Below are positions 3,304 to 46,121 of a stretch of 64,000 bases of DNA, piece by piece (positions within the stretch are counted from its first letter, which is position 1; every line of letters starts with the position of its first letter). Below the pieces are notes generated by a model that was not told the DNA's origin, did no database searches, and saw only the letters and a program-made list of their open reading frames with translations. Where the stretch lies: NCBI RefSeq assembly GCF_030013205.1, contig NZ_CP122648.1, one strand, 5' to 3'. Source of the stretch: Escherichia coli. GTDB taxonomy: Bacteria; Pseudomonadota; Gammaproteobacteria; Enterobacterales; Enterobacteriaceae. Made by a program: the position numbers and the translations under genes.

Positions 3304-3403
3304 GCCTGATGCGCTGCGCTTATCAGGCCTACAAGTTGAATTGCAATTTATTGAATTTGCACATTTTTGTAGGCCAGATAAGGCGTTTACGCCGCATCCG
3401 GCA
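3304..3403. repeat. REP/BIME element (two inverted REP units) in fliC 3' region
   Basis: gcctgatgcgctgcgcttatcaggcctac ... gtaggccagataaggcgtttacgccgcatccggca, typical E. coli REP palindromes. Confidence 0.75.
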
Positions 3404-13249: not shown

Positions 13250-13325
<76 letters not shown>

Positions 13326-13379
13326 GTTTAAAAGACATCGGCGTCAAGCGGATGTCTGGCTGAAAGGCCTGAAGAATTT

Positions 13380-13453
13380 GGCGCGTTAACAAAGCGGTTA
13401 TGTAGCGGATTGCAAATCCGTCTAGTCCGGTTCGACTCCGGAACGCGCCTCCA
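13380..13453 (+). tRNA. cysT: tRNA-Cys (anticodon GCA)
   Basis: ggcgcgttaacaaagcggttatgtagcggattGCAaatccgtctagtccggttcgactccggaacgcgcctcca. Confidence 0.95.
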
Positions 13454-13465
13454 CTTTCTTCCCGA

Positions 13466-13552
13466 GCCCGGATGGTGGAATCGGTAGACACAAGGGATTT
13501 AAAATCCCTCGGCGTTCGCGCTGTGCGGGTTCAAGTCCCGCTCCGGGTACCA
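13466..13552 (+). tRNA. leuZ: tRNA-Leu (anticodon TAA), long variable arm
   Basis: gcccggatggtggaatcggtagacacaagggattTAAaatccctcggcgttcgcgctgtgcgggttcaagtcccgctccgggtacca. Confidence 0.95.
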
Positions 13553-19228: not shown

Positions 19229-20218
19229 ATGCACAAATTTACTAAAGCCCTGGCAGCCATTGGTCTGGCAGCCGTTATGTCACAATCCGCTATGGCGGAG
19301 AACCTGAAGCTCGGTTTCCTGGTGAAGCAACCGGAAGAGCCGTGGTTCCAGACCGAATGGAAGTTTGCCGATAAAGCTGGGAAGGATTTAGGGTTTGAAG
19401 TTATTAAGATTGCCGTGCCGGATGGCGAAAAAACATTGAACGCGATCGACAGCCTGGCTGCCAGTGGCGCAAAAGGTTTCGTTATTTGTACTCCGGACCC
19501 GAAACTCGGCTCTGCCATCGTGGCGAAAGCGCGTGGCTACGATATGAAAGTCATTGCCGTGGATGACCAGTTTGTTAACGCCAAAGGCAAGCCAATGGAT
19601 ACCGTTCCGCTGGTGATGATGGCAGCGACCAAAATTGGCGAACGTCAGGGCCAGGAACTGTATAAAGAGATGCAGAAACGTGGCTGGGATGTCAAAGAAA
19701 GCGCGGTGATGGCGATTACCGCCAACGAACTGGATACGGCTCGTCGCCGTACTACGGGGTCTATGGATGCGCTGAAAGCTGCAGGATTCCCGGAAAAACA
19801 AATTTATCAGGTACCTACCAAATCTAACGACATCCCGGGGGCATTTGACGCTGCCAACTCAATGCTGGTTCAACATCCGGAAGTTAAACATTGGCTGATC
19901 GTCGGTATGAACGACAGCACCGTACTTGGCGGCGTACGCGCGACGGAAGGTCAGGGCTTTAAAGCGGCCGATATCATCGGTATCGGTATTAACGGTGTGG
20001 ATGCGGTGAGCGAACTGTCTAAGGCACAGGCAACCGGCTTCTACGGTTCCCTGCTGCCAAGCCCGGACGTACATGGCTATAAATCCAGCGAAATGCTTTA
20101 CAACTGGGTAGCAAAAGACGTTGAACCGCCAAAATTTACCGAAGTTACCGACGTGGTATTGATCACGCGTGACAACTTTAAAGAAGAACTGGAGAAAAAA
20201 GGTTTAGGCGGTAAGTAA
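19229..20218 (+). CDS. araF: L-arabinose-binding periplasmic protein AraF, 329 aa
   Basis: MHKFTKALAAIGLAAVMSQSAMAENLKLGFLVKQPEEPWFQTEWKFADKAGKDLGFEVIKIAV...; ORF-track start trimmed. Confidence 0.94.
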   Translation: MHKFTKALAAIGLAAVMSQSAMAENLKLGFLVKQPEEPWFQTEWKFADKAGKDLGFEVIKIAVPDGEKTLNAIDSLAASGAKGFVICTPDPKLGSAIVAKARGYDMKVIAVDDQFVNAKGKPMDTVPLVMMAATKIGERQGQELYKEMQKRGWDVKESAVMAITANELDTARRRTTGSMDALKAAGFPEKQIYQVPTKSNDIPGAFDAANSMLVQHPEVKHWLIVGMNDSTVLGGVRATEGQGFKAADIIGIGINGVDAVSELSKAQATGFYGSLLPSPDVHGYKSSEMLYNWVAKDVEPPKFTEVTDVVLITRDNFKEELEKKGLGGK

Positions 20219-21816: not shown

Positions 21817-25169
<3,353 letters not shown>

Positions 25170-25175
25170 GTGCGG

Positions 25176-25604
25176 TTAATCTCCCGTAAGTGGAACTAAC
25201 AGCACATCGACCTCACTTGAGGCAATCACTCTTTTCGCCGAGCAGGATGCTCGCGAAAAGAAACTGTGATTGTGATTACCGCAAATCACCAAATCGAAAT
25301 GATATTTGCGACAAACTTCCAGAATATGTTCGCTTAACTCACCGTAGGCAATAAACGTCTTGTCAACGGGATACCCCGCATCCTGAATTAACTTATCAAG
25401 AAAGCTTTGCGTTTCTTCCTGCATCACGCTGCGTAAATCTTCAAGCATCGGCGCAGCTAATTGATTGTACATTTCCGGGTCGGACGCGAGAGTAATTAAA
25501 CTGATGTGTCCCTTTACTGGCCTGGCGATAGATACCGCTTTTGCCAGCAGTTGCTGACTTTCCGGTGTAACCGCAACGGCGACAAGAATATTGCTATAGC
25601 TCAT
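25176..25604 (-). CDS. uspC: universal stress protein UspC, 142 aa
   Basis: MSYSNILVAVAVTPESQQLLAKAVSIARPVKGHISLITLASDPEMYNQLAAPMLEDLRSVMQEETQSFLDKLIQDAGYPV... Confidence 0.9.
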   Translation of the reverse strand: MSYSNILVAVAVTPESQQLLAKAVSIARPVKGHISLITLASDPEMYNQLAAPMLEDLRSVMQEETQSFLDKLIQDAGYPVDKTFIAYGELSEHILEVCRKYHFDLVICGNHNHSFFSRASCSAKRVIASSEVDVLLVPLTGD

Positions 25605-26384
25605 AACCTGTTCCTTATTCTGTGAACTTCAGGTGACATTAAAGCTTTACTCCTAATGGAGAAACGACGCAATCCCAACTCAGTCAAACAGGTAAATATT
25701 AGTCTGATTATTAGTAAAGACAATTAATCAATCACTCTCGGTGATCATATGATTTCAACTGTAATTATAAGAAAATAATGTACTGATTCTCCATATTAAA
25801 CAAGTGGTTAATACATGTAAAACATTTTATTAACATTAAGTTGATTGTTGCCTTTCTTTGTATTTAATTAGTTTGTTGTGCGGTAAATGTCTGTTTAAAA
25901 ATAGCTTATCTGGTATTGCATTAAAGCAATTATTTATGGCAGATGATTATTTACGGTGAGTTATTTTAACTGTGCGCAACATCCCATTTCGATTATTCCT
26001 GTTTCATTTTTGCTTGCTAGAGTCGCGAAAAACTTTTTAACAGATTGAAATACACCCAAAACAAAAGTATGACTTATACATTTATGTTAAGTAATTGAGC
26101 GTTTTGTGTGATCTGTATCACACATTATTGAAAATCGCAGCCCCCCTCCGTTGTATGTGAGTGTAGTGACGAGTAAAGTTGCGTCGATTTAGGAAAAATC
26201 TTAGATAAGTGTAAAGAACCCCTTCTATTTGTGAGGACTTATTAAATCCAAAAAAGGGGCTCTGCCTGTTGCAGCTTATCGCAACTATTCTAATGCTAAT
26301 TATTTTTTACCGGGGCTTCCCGGCGACATCACGGGGTGCGGTGAGACCGCATAAAAATAAAGTTGGTTATTCTGGGTGGGAATA
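25605..26384 (+). promoter_or_regulatory. flhDC upstream regulatory region and long 5' leader (AT-rich), no IS element present
   Basis: 780-bp AT-rich intergenic segment preceding flhD; by established knowledge this region carries the class 1 promoter and multiple regulator and sRNA target sites; individual sites not resolved here. Confidence 0.5.
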
Positions 26385-26735
26385 ATGCATACCTCCGAGT
26401 TGCTGAAACACATTTATGACATCAACTTGTCATATTTACTACTTGCACAGCGTCTGATTGTTCAGGACAAAGCGTCCGCAATGTTTCGTCTCGGCATAAA
26501 TGAAGAAATGGCGACAACGTTAGCGGCACTGACTCTTCCGCAAATGGTTAAGCTGGCAGAAACCAATCAACTGGTTTGTCACTTTCGTTTTGACAGCCAC
26601 CAGACGATTACTCAGTTGACGCAAGATTCCCGCGTTGACGATCTCCAGCAAATTCATACCGGCATCATGCTCTCAACACGCTTGCTGAATGATGTTAATC
26701 AGCCTGAAGAAGCGCTGCGCAAGAAAAGGGCCTGA
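26385..26735 (+). CDS. flhD: flagellar master regulator subunit FlhD, 116 aa
   Basis: [70 protein letters not shown]...; alternative upstream ATG at 26376. Confidence 0.93.
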
Positions 26736-26737
26736 TC

Positions 26738-27316
26738 ATGAGTGAAAAAAGCATTGTTCAGGAAGCGCGGGATATTCAGCTGGCAATGGAATTGATCACC
26801 CTTGGCGCTCGTTTGCAGATGCTGGAAAGCGAAACACAGTTAAGTCGCGGACGCCTGATAAAACTCTATAAAGAACTGCGCGGAAGCCCACCGCCGAAAG
26901 GCATGCTGCCATTCTCAACCGACTGGTTTATGACCTGGGAACAAAACGTTCATGCTTCGATGTTCTGTAACGCATGGCAGTTTTTACTGAAAACCGGCTT
27001 GTGTAATGGCGTCGATGCGGTGATCAAAGCCTACCGTTTATACCTTGAACAGTGCCCGCAAGCAGAAGAAGGACCGCTGCTGGCATTAACCCGTGCCTGG
27101 ACATTGGTGCGGTTTGTTGAAAGTGGATTACTGCAACTTTCCAGCTGCAACTGCTGCGGCGGCAATTTTATTACCCACGCTCACCAGCCTGTTGGCAGCT
27201 TTGCCTGCAGCTTATGTCAGCCGCCATCCCGGGCAGTAAAAAGACGTAAACTTTCCCAGAATCCTGCCGATATTATCCCACAACTGCTGGATGAACAGAG
27301 AGTACAGGCTGTTTAA
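26738..27316 (+). CDS. flhC: flagellar master regulator subunit FlhC, 192 aa
   Basis: [70 protein letters not shown]... with C-terminal Cys cluster. Confidence 0.95.
27247..27273 (+). promoter_or_regulatory. sigma28 class 3 promoter of motA-motB-cheA-cheW, located inside the 3' end of flhC
   Basis: TAAA (27247-27250), 15-nt spacer, GCCGATAT (27266-27273); one mismatch to TAAA-N15-GCCGATAA. Confidence 0.6.
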
Positions 27317-27375
27317 CTGATACGGTGTGGCGCAACATTCCAGCAGCGGTAACGACGTACCGCTGCTTTTTTTTG
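27281..27375 (+). ncRNA. candidate 5'UTR-derived sRNA (MotR-like) ending at an intrinsic terminator upstream of motA
   Basis: Predicted sigma28 start about 8 nt after the -10, then hairpin agcagcggtaacgacgtaccgctgct plus T8 at 27342-27375, about 65 nt before the motA start; boundaries inferred, not measured. Confidence 0.35.
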
Positions 27376-27442
27376 CCCCAATCGCGCGTTAACGCCTGAC
27401 GACTGAACATCCTGTCATGGTCAACAGTGGAAGGATGATGTC

Positions 27443-28326
27443 GTGCTTATCTTATTAGGTTACCTGGTTGTTCTCGGTACAGTTTTCGGCGGTTATTTGA
27501 TGACCGGTGGAAGCCTTGGAGCACTCTATCAACCCGCTGAACTGGTGATTATTGCCGGTGCAGGGATTGGGTCATTTATCGTCGGCAATAATGGCAAAGC
27601 GATTAAAGGCACGCTGAAGGCGCTGCCGTTGCTGTTTCGTCGCTCCAAATACACCAAAGCAATGTATATGGATCTGCTGGCTCTGCTTTATCGGTTGATG
27701 GCGAAATCGCGGCAGATGGGGATGTTTTCGCTGGAACGTGATATTGAAAATCCCCGTGAGAGCGAGATCTTCGCCAGCTACCCACGCATCCTTGCGGATA
27801 GCGTCATGCTTGATTTTATCGTCGATTATCTGCGTCTGATTATCAGCGGTCACATGAACACCTTCGAAATCGAAGCCCTGATGGATGAAGAGATTGAGAC
27901 GCACGAAAGCGAAGCAGAAGTCCCGGCGAACAGTCTGGCGCTGGTCGGGGACTCACTTCCGGCGTTTGGTATTGTCGCGGCTGTGATGGGGGTCGTTCAC
28001 GCGTTAGGTTCAGCCGATCGTCCTGCCGCCGAGCTGGGGGCGCTTATCGCACATGCGATGGTGGGGACTTTCCTCGGTATTTTATTGGCTTACGGATTTA
28101 TTTCCCCATTAGCGAGTGTTTTACGTCAGAAAAGCGCCGAAACCAGCAAAATGATGCAGTGCGTCAAAGTCACACTGCTTTCTAATCTGAACGGTTACGC
28201 ACCGCCTATCGCCGTTGAGTTTGGTCGCAAAACGCTCTATTCCAGCGAACGTCCATCGTTTATTGAACTGGAAGAGCATGTGCGTGCGGTGAAAAATCCG
28301 CAACAACAGACGACAACCGAGGAAGC

Positions 28327-28330
<4 letters not shown>
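27443..28330 (+). CDS. motA: flagellar motor stator protein MotA, 295 aa
   Basis: [55 protein letters not shown]... Confidence 0.95.
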
Positions 28331-31222
<2,892 letters not shown>

Positions 31223-31242
31223 ATGAGTAAAAAGGTAACAAT

Positions 31243-31746
31243 ATGACCGGTATGACGAATGTAACAAAGCTGGCCAGCGAGCCGTCAGGCCAGGAATTTC
31301 TGGTATTTACCCTTGGTGATGAAGAGTACGGTATTGATATCCTGAAAGTGCAGGAGATCCGTGGCTACGATCAGGTAACACGGATTGCGAACACGCCAGC
31401 GTTTATCAAAGGCGTCACGAATCTGCGCGGCGTTATTGTGCCGATTGTCGACTTACGAATTAAGTTCAGCCAGGTGGATGTGGACTATAACGACAACACG
31501 GTAGTTATCGTCCTGAATTTCGGACAGCGGGTGGTCGGCATCGTGGTTGACGGCGTTTCAGACGTGCTTTCATTGACGGCGGAGCAAATTCGTCCGGCAC
31601 CGGAATTTGCCGTGACGCTTTCAACAGAATATCTCACTGGACTGGGCGCACTGGGCGACCGGATGTTGATTCTGGTGAACATCGAAAAACTGCTGAACAG
31701 CGAAGAGATGGCGCTGTTAGATAGCGCGGCGTCAGAAGTGGCGTAA
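31243..31746 (+). CDS. cheW: chemotaxis coupling protein CheW, 167 aa
   Basis: [72 protein letters not shown]... Confidence 0.95.
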
Positions 31747-31774
31747 TTCTCCCGATTTCCTCAATTGCAATGAA

Positions 31775-31801
31775 CCCGATGACCTGCGCATCGGGTTTTT
31801 T
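31775..31801 (+). terminator. rho-independent terminator after cheW
   Basis: hairpin cccgatg-acctgcg-catcggg followed by ttttttt. Confidence 0.65.
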
Positions 31802-31802
31802 A

Positions 31803-32510
31803 TTGTGCACAGAAAACCCCCAGCTAGGCTGGGGGTTCCGGAAAGCTTTCAGCTTTGAGCCAGTTATTAAAACCCCTTTTGATTTGTTAAAACACCTTGC
31901 GGTCTGGCAACTGCAAGTGTCAAACAAGAAATCAAAAGGGGGTCCCAATGGGGAACGAAAAGAGCTTAGCGCACACCCGATGGAACTGTAAATATCACAT
32001 AGTTTTTGCGCCAAAATACCGAAGACAAGTGTTCTACAGAGAGAAGCGTAGAGCAATAGGCAGTATTTTGAGAAAGCTGTGTGAGTGGAAAAGCGTACGG
32101 ATTCTTGAAGCTGAATGCTGTGCAGATCATATCCATATGCTTGTGGAGATCCCGCCCAAAATGAGCGTATCCGGCTTTATGGGATATCTGAAAGGGAAAA
32201 GCAGTCTGATGCTTTACGAGCAGTTTGGTGATTTGAAATTCAAATACAGGAACAGAGAGTTCTGGTGCAGAGGGTACTACGTCGATACGGTGGGTAAGAA
32301 CACGGCGAAGATACAGGATTACATAAAGCACCAGCTTGAAGAGGATAAAATGGGAGAGCAGTTATCGATTCCCTATCCGGGCAGCCCGTTTACGGGCCGT
32401 AAGTAACGAAGTTGGATGCAAATGTCAGATCGTGTGCGCCTGTTAGGGCGCGGCTGGTAAGAGAGCCTTATAGGCGCATTTGAAAAACCTCCGGCTATGC
32501 CGGAGGATAT
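31803..32510 (+). mobile_element. IS200-like insertion sequence (IS200/IS605 family), about 0.7 kb, boundaries approximate
   Basis: Single tnpA gene flanked by subterminal hairpins (cccccagc-tag-gctggggg at 31817-31835; cctccggc-tat-gccggagg at 32488-32506); extra DNA between the cheW terminator and the tar promoter; no terminal inverted repeats or target duplication seen, as expected for this family. Confidence 0.65.
31948..32406 (+). CDS. tnpA: IS200-type Y1 (HuH) transposase TnpA, 152 aa
   Basis: MGNEKSLAHTRWNCKYHIVFAPKYRRQVFY...CCADHIHMLVEIPPKMSVSGFMGYLKGKSS...RNREFWCRGYYVDTVGKN: HuH motif (HIH) and catalytic Tyr region typical of IS200 TnpA; ORF-track start at 31897 trimmed. Confidence 0.92.
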   Translation: MGNEKSLAHTRWNCKYHIVFAPKYRRQVFYREKRRAIGSILRKLCEWKSVRILEAECCADHIHMLVEIPPKMSVSGFMGYLKGKSSLMLYEQFGDLKFKYRNREFWCRGYYVDTVGKNTAKIQDYIKHQLEEDKMGEQLSIPYPGSPFTGRK

Positions 32511-32543
32511 TTATTTCAGTTTCGCGGCGGGTGGCATCAGCAA

Positions 32544-32570
32544 TAAAGTTTCCCCCTTCCTTGCCGATAA
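32544..32570 (+). promoter_or_regulatory. sigma28 class 3 promoter of tar-tap-cheRBYZ
   Basis: Perfect TAAA-N15-GCCGATAA (TAAA 32544-32547; GCCGATAA 32563-32570), about 30 nt upstream of tar ATG and downstream of the IS200-like element. Confidence 0.75.
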
Positions 32571-32601
32571 CGAGATCAACTTGTTTTCAGGAAGGTGCCT
32601 T

Positions 32602-34263
32602 ATGATTAACCGTATCCGCGTAGTCACGCTGTTGGTAATGGTGCTGGGGGTATTCGCACTGTTACAGCTTATTTCCGGCAGTCTGTTTTTTTCTTCCCTT
32701 CACCATAGCCAGAAGAGCTTTGTGGTTTCCAATCAATTACGGGAACAGCAGGGCGAGCTGACGTCAACCTGGGATTTAATGCTGCAAACGCGCATTAACC
32801 TGAGTCGTTCAGCGGTGCGGATGATGATGGATTCCTCCAATCAACAAAGTAACGCCAAAGTTGAATTGCTCGATAGCGCCAGGAAAACATTGGCCCAGGC
32901 CGCGACGCATTATAAAAAATTCAAAAGCATGGCACCGTTACCTGAAATGGTCGCTACCAGTCGTAATATTGATGAAAAATATAAAAACTATCACACAGCG
33001 TTAACTGAACTGATTGATTATCTTGATTATGGCAATACTGGAGCTTATTTCGCTCAGCCAACCCAGGGAATGCAAAATGCAATGGGCGAAGCGTTTGCTC
33101 AGTACGCCCTCAGCAGTGAAAAACTGTATCGCGATATCGTCACTGACAACGCAGATGATTACCGATTTGCCCAGTGGCAACTGGCGGTTATCGCGCTGGT
33201 GGTGGTATTGATTCTGCTGGTGGCGTGGTACGGCATTCGCCGTATGTTGCTTACACCGCTGGCAAAAATTATTGCTCACATTCGCGAAATCGCCAGTGGT
33301 AACCTGGCGAATACCCTGACCATTGACGGGCGCAGTGAAATGGGCGACCTGGCGCAGAGCGTTTCACATATGCAACGCTCTTTGACTGACACCGTCACTC
33401 ATGTGCGTGAAGGTTCAGATGCCATCTATGCCGGTACCCGTGAAATTGCGGCGGGCAACACCGATCTTTCCTCCCGTACTGAACAGCAGGCATCTGCGCT
33501 GGAAGAAACTGCCGCCAGCATGGAGCAGCTCACCGCGACAGTGAAGCAAAACGCCGATAACGCCCGCCAGGCCTCGCAACTGGCGCAAAGTGCCTCCGAT
33601 ACTGCCCAGCACGGCGGAAAAGTAGTGGATGGTGTAGTGAAAACGATGCATGAGATCGCCGATAGTTCGAAGAAAATTGCCGACATTATCAGCGTTATCG
33701 ATGGTATTGCCTTCCAGACTAATATCCTCGCGTTGAATGCCGCTGTTGAAGCCGCGCGTGCGGGTGAACAGGGCCGTGGTTTTGCCGTGGTGGCGGGCGA
33801 AGTGCGTAATCTTGCCAGTCGCAGCGCCCAGGCGGCAAAAGAGATCAAAGCCCTCATTGAAGACTCCGTCTCGCGCGTTGATACCGGTTCGGTGCTGGTC
33901 GAAAGCGCCGGGGAAACAATGAACAATATCGTCAATGCTGTCACTCGCGTGACTGACATTATGGGCGAGATTGCATCGGCATCGGATGAACAGAGCCGTG
34001 GCATCGATCAAGTCGCATTGGCGGTTTCGGAAATGGATCGCGTCACGCAACAGAACGCATCGCTGGTGCAGGAATCAGCTGCCGCCGCAGCTGCGCTGGA
34101 AGAACAGGCCAGTCGTTTAACGCAAGCGGTTTCCGCGTTTCGTCTGGCAGCCAGCCCACTCACCAATAAACCGCAAACACCATCCCGTCCTGCCAGTGAG
34201 CAACCACCGGCACAGCCACGACTGCGAATTACTGAACAAGATCCAAACTGGGAAACATTTTGA
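32602..34263 (+). CDS. tar: methyl-accepting chemotaxis protein II Tar (aspartate/maltose receptor), 553 aa
   Basis: [60 protein letters not shown]...; HAMP and conserved MCP signalling domain; ORF-track upstream extension trimmed. Confidence 0.95.
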
Positions 34264-34308
34264 CGAGTTTTTACTAACGCGGTCATTGCCGCCTGATGGG
34301 GAGCGTTG

Positions 34309-35910
34309 ATGTTTAATCGTATTCGAATTTCGACCACGCTGTTTTTAATTTTGATTCTCTGCGGGATCTTGCAGATTGGCAGTAACGGCATGTCTTTTTG
34401 GGCATTTCGCGACGATTTGCAACGACTGAATCAGGTCGAGCAGAGCAATCAGCAACGTGCGGCATTAGCGCAAACTCGGGCGGTAATGTTACAGGCCAGT
34501 ACCGCGCTGAACAAAGCGGGCACTCTGACGGCGCTTAGCTATCCGGCGGATGACATTAAAACGTTGATGACGACGGCGCGCGCCAGTCTGACGCAATCCA
34601 CCACGCTGTTTAAAAGTTTTATGGCGATGACTGCGGGCAATGAGCACGTCAGGGCGTTGCAAAAAGAGACGGAGAAAAGTTTTGCCCGCTGGCACAACGA
34701 TCTCGAACATCAGGCGACCTGGCTTGAAAGTAATCAACTTTCGGATTTCCTCACTGCGCCGGTGCAGGAATCACAGAATGCGTTTGACGTTAACTTTGAG
34801 GCCTGGCAGCAGGAGATCAACCATGTGCTGGAAGCTGCCAGTGCGCAAAGCCAGCGTAACTATCAGATTTCGGCGCTGGTGTTTATCAGCATGATTATTG
34901 TTGCGGCGATCTACATCAGCAGTGCGCTGTGGTGGACGCGCAAGATGATTGTTCAACCACTGGCCATTATCGGTAGCCATTTTGACAGCATTGCTGCGGG
35001 TAATCTGGCGCGTCCGATTGCGGTATATGGTCGCAATGAGATCACCGCCATTTTTGCCAGTCTGAAGACCATGCAGCAGGCTTTGCGTGGGACGGTAAGT
35101 GATGTGCGTAAGGGAAGCCAGGAGATGCACATTGGTATCGCGGAGATTGTCGCAGGCAATAACGATCTCTCAAGTCGTACCGAACAGCAGGCGGCATCGC
35201 TGGCACAAACGGCCGCCAGTATGGAGCAATTAACCGCCACGGTAGGGCAAAACGCCGATAACGCGCGCCAGGCGTCGGAACTGGCAAAAAATGCCGCGAC
35301 AACGGCGCAGGCGGGCGGTGTTCAGGTCAGTACCATGACTCACACCATGCAGGAGATCGCCACCAGCTCGCAAAAAATTGGCGACATTATCAGCGTTATC
35401 GACGGCATTGCTTTCCAGACCAATATTCTGGCCCTGAATGCGGCAGTGGAAGCGGCTCGCGCCGGAGAGCAGGGGCGTGGTTTTGCGGTAGTGGCAGGTG
35501 AAGTGCGCAATCTTGCCAGCCGTAGCGCGCAGGCAGCAAAAGAGATCAAAGGGCTGATCGAAGAGTCAGTCAATCGTGTCCAGCAGGGGGCGAAACTGGT
35601 GAATAACGCCGCCGCGACCATGACTGATATTGTCAGTTCGGTGACCCGCGTGAACGACATTATGGGAGAAATTGCTTCGGCCTCGGAAGAACAACGGCGG
35701 GGGATTGAGCAGGTTGCACAGGCTGTCAGCCAGATGGATCAGGTGACTCAGCAGAACGCCTCCCTGGTAGAAGAAGCGGCGACGGCAACGGAACAACTGG
35801 CGAACCAGGCTGACCATCTTTCGTCGCGTGTGGCGGTATTTACCCTTGAAGAACATGAAGTAGCACGACATGAGTCGGCGCAATTACAAATTGCGCCAGT
35901 GGTATCCTGA
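34309..35910 (+). CDS. tap: methyl-accepting chemotaxis protein IV Tap (dipeptide receptor), 533 aa
   Basis: [56 protein letters not shown]... with MCP signalling domain. Confidence 0.94.
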
Positions 35911-35928
35911 AGTGATTGAGAAGGCGCT

Positions 35929-36789
35929 ATGACTTCATCTCTGCCCTGTGGGCAAACGTCTTTATTGTTACAGATGACCGAGCGCCTGGCGCTTTCCGAC
36001 GCGCATTTTCGGCGGATAAGTCAATTGATCTATCAACGAGCCGGGATCGTTCTGGCTGACCATAAACGCGACATGGTTTACAACCGACTGGTTCGTCGTT
36101 TGCGTTCGCTGGGGCTGACGGATTTCGGCCATTACTTGAACTTGCTTGAATCTAATCAGCACAGCGGTGAGTGGCAGGCGTTTATCAATTCGCTGACCAC
36201 GAATCTGACGGCTTTTTTCCGTGAGGCGCATCATTTTCCTCTGCTCGCGGATCACGCCCGGCGTCGTTCTGGCGAGTATCGCGTATGGAGCGCGGCGGCT
36301 TCGACCGGCGAAGAGCCGTACAGCATTGCGATGACGCTGGCTGACACATTGGGCACCGTGCCCGGACGCTGGAAAGTGTTTGCCAGTGATATCGACTCCG
36401 AAGTGCTGGAAAAAGCCAGAAGCGGTATTTATCGCCATGAAGAGTTGAAAAACCTGACGCCGCAGCAACTGCAACGGTATTTCATGCGAGGGACGGGACC
36501 GCATGAAGGGCTGGTACGCGTGCGTCAGGAGCTGGCGAACTATGTTGATTTTGCCCCGCTGAATTTACTGGCGAAACAGTACACCGTGCCGGGGCCGTTT
36601 GATGCGATCTTCTGTCGTAACGTCATGATCTACTTCGATCAAACTACCCAGCAGGAGATTTTGCGCCGCTTTGTTCCGCTCCTTAAACCCGACGGATTGC
36701 TGTTTGCGGGTCACTCTGAAAACTTTAGCCACCTTGAGCGCCGCTTCACGCTGCGTGGTCAGACGGTGTATGCGCTAAGTAAGGATTAA
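35929..36789 (+). CDS. cheR: chemotaxis protein methyltransferase CheR, 286 aa
   Basis: [63 protein letters not shown]... Confidence 0.95.
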
Positions 36790-36791
36790 CG

Positions 36792-38245
<1,454 letters not shown>

Positions 38246-38255
38246 GGATGCGACT

Positions 38256-38900
38256 ATGATGCAACCATCAATCAAACCTGCTGACGAGCATTCAGCTGGC
38301 GATATCATTGCGCGCATCGGCAGCCTGACGCGTATGCTGCGCGACAGTTTGCGGGAGCTGGGGCTGGATCAGGCCATTGCCGAAGCGGCGGAAGCCATCC
38401 CCGATGCGCGCGATCGTTTGTACTATGTTGTGCAGATGACCGCCCAGGCTGCGGAGCGGGCGCTGAACAGTGTTGAGGCGTCACAACCGCATCAGGATCA
38501 AATGGAGAAATCAGCAAAAGCGTTAACCCAACGTTGGGATGACTGGTTTGCCGATCCGATTGACCTTGCCGATGCCCGAGAACTGGTAACAGATACGCGG
38601 CAATTTCTGGCAGATGTCCCCGCGCATACCTGCTTTACTAACGCGCAACTGCTGGAAATCATGATGGCGCAGGATTTTCAGGATCTCACCGGGCAGGTCA
38701 TTAAGCGGATGATGGATGTCATTCAGGAGATCGAACGTCAGTTGCTGATGGTGCTGTTGGAAAACATCCCGGAACAGGAGTCGCGTCCAAAACGTGAAAA
38801 CCAGAGTTTGCTTAATGGACCTCAGGTCGATACCAGCAAAGCCGGTGTGGTAGCCAGTCAGGATCAGGTGGACGATTTGTTGGATAGTCTTGGATTTTGA
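38256..38900 (+). CDS. cheZ: CheY-P phosphatase CheZ, 214 aa
   Basis: [71 protein letters not shown]...; ORF-track start trimmed. Confidence 0.94.
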
Positions 38901-45285: not shown

Positions 45286-46041
<756 letters not shown>

Positions 46042-46087
46042 TTTTTACCGTTGCATCATGTCGCCCAATATGATGCTTGCTCGTACC

Positions 46088-46121
46088 AGGCCCCTGCAAT
46101 TTCAACAGGGGCCTTTTTTTA
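46088..46121 (+). terminator. rho-independent terminator after cutC
   Basis: aggcccctg-caatttcaa-caggggcct followed by ttttttt. Confidence 0.7.

Follow-up and report, generated by a model that had tools for sequence, protein, structure and literature searches.

In Escherichia coli K-12, the AT-rich tract upstream of the master operon flhDC is the landing zone of activating IS elements, which insert as far upstream as -476, and it is destabilised by superhelical stress (SIDD) (PMC5100188; PMC5493358). In the sequenced stock of MG1655, the interval between uspC and flhD measures 1555 bp and holds a 768-bp IS1H at -107 to -100, flanked by an 8-bp duplication of CATTTATG. The W3110 interval measures 1978 bp and holds an IS5 of approximately 1.2 kb at a TTAA (-99 to -96), the published position of the IS5 hot spot (PMC5100188). 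K-12 stocks that lack an IS element at this site are represented by BW25113, the “non-motile” MG1655 stocks, and CETR1G40. The K-12 flhD leader is targeted by CsrA, several sRNAs, and the antisense RNA AsflhD (PMC3634460; bioRxiv 10.1101/2021.05.11.443715), and a CAP site is published at -72 in the latter source. Here, the corresponding region is described in a 64,000-nucleotide stretch of E. coli DNA, referred to as the window. A sequence-only reading of the window had taken the region to be native, free of IS1/IS5-type insertions, and tightly repressed.

The uspC-flhD interval and its lineage

The gene order in the window is otsB-otsA, uspC, a 780-bp gap, flhD, flhC, and motA, with otsBA-uspC on one side of the gap and flhDC-motAB-cheAW on the other (Table 1). 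The divergent arrangement of uspC and flhDC, followed by motAB-cheAW, is evident from the open reading frames and from the RefSeq annotation of identical strains, and the annotation of two of these strains, K_EC180 and ETEC4079, also gives the gene name uspC. The length and boundaries that the sequence-only reading had assigned to the interval are exact, since uspC occupies 25176-25604 on the minus strand and the ATG of flhD begins at 26385. Its “AT-rich” label is also accurate, the interval having a GC content of 34.9% compared with 50.4% for the whole window.

Table 1. Coordinates of features in the uspC-flhD region and the cheW-tar spacer of the window. Negative and positive offsets are counted from the flhD transcription start site (TSS), transferred from K-12 by homology.
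Feature	Coordinates	Strand	Remarks
uspC (universal stress protein C)	25176..25604	-	142-aa ORF; divergent from flhDC
uspC-flhD intergenic interval, without IS	25605..26384		780 bp
AT-rich upstream regulatory tract	25700..26100		28.7% GC
Unoccupied target of MG1655 IS1H, CATTTATG	26079..26086		-107 to -100; occurs once
Unoccupied IS5 hot spot, TTAA	26087..26090		-99 to -96; occurs once; W3110 IS5 junction derived
Putative cAMP-CRP site, TGTGATCTGTATCACA	26107..26122	+	Centred at -71.5 from the homologous TSS
Putative flhDC class I sigma-70 promoter	26151..26179	+	-35 TTGTAT (26151-26156), 17-bp spacer, -10 TAAAGT (26174-26179)
Position homologous to the K-12 flhD TSS	26186	+	199 nt 5' of the ATG (198 nt in K-12)
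flhD 5'UTR	26186..26384	+	199 nt; start placed by homology with K-12
RcsAB-box-like operator, TAGGAAAAATCTTA	26190..26203	+	+5 to +18; identical to K-12 and invariant in 12 alleles
flhD	26385..26735	+	ATG at 26385; protein identical to K-12; WP_001295647.1, also in W3110
flhC	26738..27316	+	Protein identical to K-12; WP_001291603.1, also in W3110
IS200C element	31805..32515	+	711 bp; tnpA 31948-32406; flanked by the terminator of cheW and the sigma-28 promoter of tar
Putative tar sigma-28 promoter, TAAAGTTT-N11-GCCGATAA	32544-32570		By consensus

Alignment against MG1655 and W3110, which the sequence-only reading had proposed as a check, runs end to end once IS1H or IS5 is taken out. The IS-less K-12 interval (779 bp) is collinear with that of the window over its full length and shares 95.5% identity with it, with 34 substitutions and one 1-nt indel making up the 35 differences. 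This indel, a T at 26247 in the leader, is the sole difference in length. The flanking genes have the same orientation in IS-less K-12 and are 97.5-99.2% identical, compared with 95.5% for the interval. For uspC, the nucleotide identity is 98.1%, with three amino acid differences. The residues concerned are Q62, R99, and Y101, and in all three cases K-12 has a histidine. In MG1655, homologous flanks lie on both sides of the insertion point, and in the W3110/HMS174/RP437-type region the flanks are likewise homologous and the TTAA target is also found in the window. Relative to both laboratory arrangements, the window has the empty site. Elements shared with IS-less K-12 include the CRP site at -71.5, the -35 hexamer TTGTAT, the RcsAB-type box, the leader stem that sequesters the Shine-Dalgarno region, and the FlhD and FlhC proteins.

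The closest relatives of the interval are found outside K-12. Positions 24745-38864 of the window are 100% identical over 14,120 bp to ETEC4079 (NZ_CP122643.1), a strain from pig faeces in Belgium, and the identity includes an IS200C element further downstream. At least 99% identity over the 780 bp was found in 52 of 5421 genomes and 100% identity in seven, all of them porcine strains (K_EC180 and six ETEC isolates). The interval is thus that of the porcine ETEC/O139:H1 lineage (ETEC4079, K_EC180, ETEC1748, and others), and on the basis of these matches the source is a porcine enterotoxigenic E. coli and not a K-12 derivative. The sequence-only reading was therefore right to call the interval native and IS-free, but its K-12 frame does not fit a sequence that is 100% identical to ETEC4079 and 95.5% identical to K-12 in the interval. 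In K_EC180, araF and araG are annotated as frameshifted pseudogenes, which compared with the window correspond to single-G homopolymer deletions (at 19837 and 20863). Both genes are intact in the window, with open frames of 338 and 510 aa, and the K_EC180 frameshifts are probably assembly errors.

IS elements in the interval and in the motility cluster

The reported absence of an IS element upstream of flhDC is borne out, as no IS end, transposase ORF, or target duplication was found in the interval. IS terminal repeats and a transposase remnant, which the sequence-only reading had named as evidence that would speak against it, were looked for in the interval, and none was detected. The longest ORFs in the interval encode 30-40 aa, and six small ORFs scanned against Pfam gave no match at E≤1. 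Neither of the two IS1 terminal repeats occurs anywhere in the 64-kb window at up to three mismatches. When IS1H of MG1655 and IS5 of W3110 were compared with the interval and with the entire window by blastn (word size 7), only chance matches of 9-27 nt were returned, the best of them (14-27 nt) having E values of 0.04-0.4. A repeat search of the interval found no inverted-repeat IS ends, and the only repeats present are one 13-nt direct pair and one 13-nt inverted pair with 85% identity. Neither the IS1 nor the IS5 target shows a duplication footprint, each target being present once at the hot spot. The interval thus differs from the IS-activated flhDC alleles (IS1/IS5/IS3) in having no IS with terminal repeats and transposase and no target-site duplication, and its length is that of an empty site.

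A past insertion followed by excision could in principle have left a scar or remnant in the interval, an explanation that is extremely improbable. Each of the two targets, for IS1 and for IS5, occurs once and matches IS-less K-12 exactly, similarity to IS1 and IS5 is at chance level, and there are no inverted-repeat ends. In addition, the interval is single-copy in the 5421 complete E. coli genomes that carry it (median one and maximum two places per genome), which excludes a fragment of at least 28 nt from any multi-copy IS. Only an IS family absent from all 5426 genomes could escape these tests. A scar or remnant was consequently rejected, with the IS1 ends, blastn, repeats, and Pfam scan of the small ORFs all at chance.

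The uninterrupted arrangement is also the common one in the species. At least 80% of the interval is covered in one place in 5271 of 5426 complete E. coli genomes. When the IS-bearing intervals were used as queries, the whole IS1 arrangement of MG1655 was found in 77 of the 5426 genomes and the whole IS5 arrangement of W3110 in 63; all these frequencies are coverage counts and not parsed interval lengths. The few IS-bearing genomes among the matches listed belong to K-12 or to laboratory strains resembling it. In E. coli, the interval is therefore normally uninterrupted, in roughly 95% of genomes or more. Besides IS-less K-12, ten further sampled alleles have intervals of 778-780 bp that are collinear with the window. 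Since E. coli by default has no IS here, the observation is true yet marks no departure from expectation. Two sampled genomes show other natural disruptions of this locus. In AUSMDU00014361 (L003, 3001-3544), a 235-bp deletion from -198 to +37 takes out the flhD promoter, and in strain E05 (L004, 3001-3990), an IS1 replaces flhDC-motAB-cheAW and the start of tar.

The absence of IS elements holds for the flhDC interval but not for the motility cluster as a whole, since an IS200C occupies the cheW-tar spacer, at a distance of 5.4 kb downstream from flhD. The segment is 711 bp of extra sequence relative to the empty site of the otherwise near-identical K_EC180, which lacks the element, and its boundary is ambiguous by a 6-nt TTTATT repeat. 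Its assignment to the IS200/IS605 family rests on a Y1 (HUH) TnpA (Pfam PF01797 Y1_Tnp, E=3.8e-38, residues 11-129 of 152) and on a size of approximately 0.7 kb with a structured 5' region that matches Rfam STnc490 over its full length (146 bits). STnc490 corresponds to art200 of IS200 (PMC4513863). The ETEC4079 annotation likewise names the element an “IS200/IS605-like element IS200C family transposase.” IS200C directly follows the terminator hairpin of cheW and leaves the sigma-28 promoter of tar, 34 bp further downstream, intact. The motif TAAAGTTT-N11-GCCGATAA, recognised from the consensus, is presumably this promoter. The left junction of IS200C (31745-31864) has a 100% match only in ETEC4079, with matches of 96-97% at the same site in three other genomes. 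These are the pigeon strains PT62 and LP5-1 and the pig strain HCP4S3_I4, which appear unrelated. The shared junction site suggests either repeated IS200 insertion beside the terminator hairpin or an old shared insertion. An Rfam match to C0465 (65.8 bits; 32481-32554, minus strand) spans the right end of IS200C and the native cheW-tar spacer and is therefore partly on IS sequence. The IS-end hairpin may stand in for the native terminator hairpin in the C0465 model.

Promoter, regulator sites, and flhD leader

The K-12 TSS was taken from the annotation of MG1655, as the upstream boundary of its asflhD feature, and transferred to the window by alignment. The published site positions were checked for internal consistency with the window sequence, and the homologous TSS agrees with the published IS5 (-99 to -96) and CRP (-72) positions. 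The -35 and -10 hexamers were assigned from their spacing. The -10 hexamer would be TAAAGT in the window and is TACAGT in K-12, and position -26 is A in the window and C in K-12. Among 12 sampled alleles, only the window has A at -26, and KKo009 alone also has the A in the -10 hexamer. An exact copy of the 90-bp core promoter of the window (26105-26194) is present in 147 of 5269 genomes; the dominant allele departs from it at three positions. A generic sigma-70 and terminator scan did not pick up the known flhD promoter, as expected for a weak activator-dependent promoter. The scan returned three promoter-like sites, compared with 3.5 expected, all on the minus strand.

A putative CRP site near -71.5/-72 is located upstream of this sigma-70 promoter. 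The K-12 site is TGTGATCTGCATCACG, compared with TGTGATCTGTATCACA in the window, the half-site being TCACG in K-12 and TCACA in the window and the spacer base C and T, respectively. The terminal A of the half-site (26122) is common to 11 of the 12 sampled alleles, K-12 with its TCACG being the exception. By this comparison, the laboratory reference K-12 is a minority allele at the predicted CRP activator half-site. Of the 12 alleles, only that of the window has the spacer T at 26116 (-70). Further downstream, TAGGAAAAATCTTA is a candidate operator, which we take to be the RcsB/RcsAB site of Francez-Charlot et al. (2003). That study is cited in PMC5758874.

Across the 12 alleles, 74 columns are variable, and they are dense in the uspC-proximal stretch 25705-25855 and in leader hairpin 2 (26205-26305). 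Conservation is highest in the core promoter, at the IS hot spot, and in the Shine-Dalgarno stem. The predicted fold of the leader has a three-hairpin layout that is alike in six alleles and in the consensus, and it includes a long stem over the Shine-Dalgarno region, which matches the description in PMC3634460. Twelve of the 35 differences from K-12 fall within 26218-26268 (+33 to +83), either inside the inner stem of hairpin 2 or close to it. In the window, this inner stem is predicted to form a perfect CCCCUU/AAGGGG helix, and one of its pairs, C-G here, is A-U in K-12 and C·U in the common allele. The predicted stability of the leader is -61.0 kcal/mol for the window, compared with -53.6 kcal/mol for that of K-12. 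Variation within the species is low in the leader, and RNAalifold detected no compensatory pair there. In a hand-adjusted register of nine alleles, one pair is A-U in two alleles, C-G in two, and unpaired in five. Shuffled alignments reached the observed covariation in 281-492 of 500 cases, which is not significant, the variation being too sparse for a covariation signal.

An Rfam scan of the whole window found no family within the interval; neither AsflhD nor the flhD leader is represented in Rfam. Elsewhere in the window, matches above the gathering score include the MicL sRNA (368 bits; 45813-46120, plus strand) near cutC and ES036/CssrF (3325-3366, minus strand). Three tRNAs at 13250-13549 (plus strand) correspond to tRNA-Gly, tRNA-Cys, and tRNA-Leu downstream of pgsA in the K_EC180 annotation.

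Expression of flhDC from the uninterrupted interval

The region is very probably the native, uninterrupted uspC-flhD interval with the flagellar class I promoter of porcine ETEC, at which an IS1 or IS5 insertion is a rare secondary event, familiar from the laboratory lineages of K-12. The flagellar regulon has a single class I promoter, and it lies in this interval. Judged by homology with K-12, it would be a weak sigma-70 promoter (TTGTAT-17-TAAAGT) that cAMP-CRP bound at -71.5 would activate. The AT-rich tract of approximately 400 bp upstream would be where nucleoid proteins and repressors act, as they do in K-12. Downstream, transcription would pass the RcsAB-type operator at +5 to +18 and enter a structured leader open to post-transcriptional inputs from CsrA, sRNAs, and AsflhD. 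Given the differences in the predicted CRP site, promoter spacer, -10 hexamer, and leader hairpin, the quantitative regulation need not equal that of K-12.

The sequence-only reading had gone further and concluded that an interval without an IS keeps flhDC tightly repressed, which would leave the strain as poorly motile as the IS-less K-12 stocks. This is rather unlikely. BW25113 and the non-motile MG1655 stocks do have low flhDC expression and become motile upon IS1 or IS5 insertion at -96 to -476 (PMC5493358; PMC5100188), and the repressor-associated elements that can be recognised by sequence, namely the AT-rich tract and the RcsAB-type box, are conserved in the window. However, the strain is not K-12, and the intact interval is present in about 95% of genomes, many of which belong to motile lineages. 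In the ST131 strain EC958, the interval is intact and the cells are motile, with insertions only raising motility further (PMC5425062). Among ECOR isolates, spreading tracks PfliC and FlgM secretion (class III expression) and not PflhD (PMC5289928). Moreover, the window has the consensus half-site TCACA and a different -10 hexamer, compared with the minority TCACG of K-12, and K-12 is therefore not a safe proxy for the window. “Tightly repressed” is best regarded as an extrapolation from IS-less K-12 stocks, and the level of expression is not readable from the sequence. A literature search for the phenotype of strain ETEC4079 found nothing.

Alternatively, lineage-specific substitutions could give flhDC a set point other than that of the common E. 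coli allele. The candidates are the change from TACAGT to TAAAGT in the -10 hexamer, the A at -26, the T in the CRP spacer, and the C-G pair in place of C·U in the leader stem. The rarity of the 90-bp core-promoter allele, the clustering of differences from K-12 at the inner stem of hairpin 2, and the more stable predicted leader are consistent with such tuning. However, the changed position of the -10 hexamer, the third, is the least constrained one, the covariation in the hairpin is not significant, and the differences may simply reflect the neutral divergence of a phylogroup. On balance, allele-specific tuning seems unlikely. More doubtful still is the stronger proposal that this porcine ETEC lineage, through a minority allele that combines the consensus CRP half-site with the substitutions above, has reset its flhDC expression with no IS involved. 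If true, point mutations would in nature bring about the kind of change that IS insertion brings about in laboratory K-12.

A native, species-typical interval thus remains the favoured reading. The IS-free flhDC interval is confirmed as real, correctly located, and already known, and it has little meaning beyond the correct annotation of a regulatory interval that has been studied more than any other in the flagellar regulon of E. coli. K-12 lore on IS-dependent motility should not be carried over to the window of a porcine ETEC. Predictions of motility and chemotaxis for this strain should instead weigh the IS200C upstream of the tar promoter, and not the flhDC interval.
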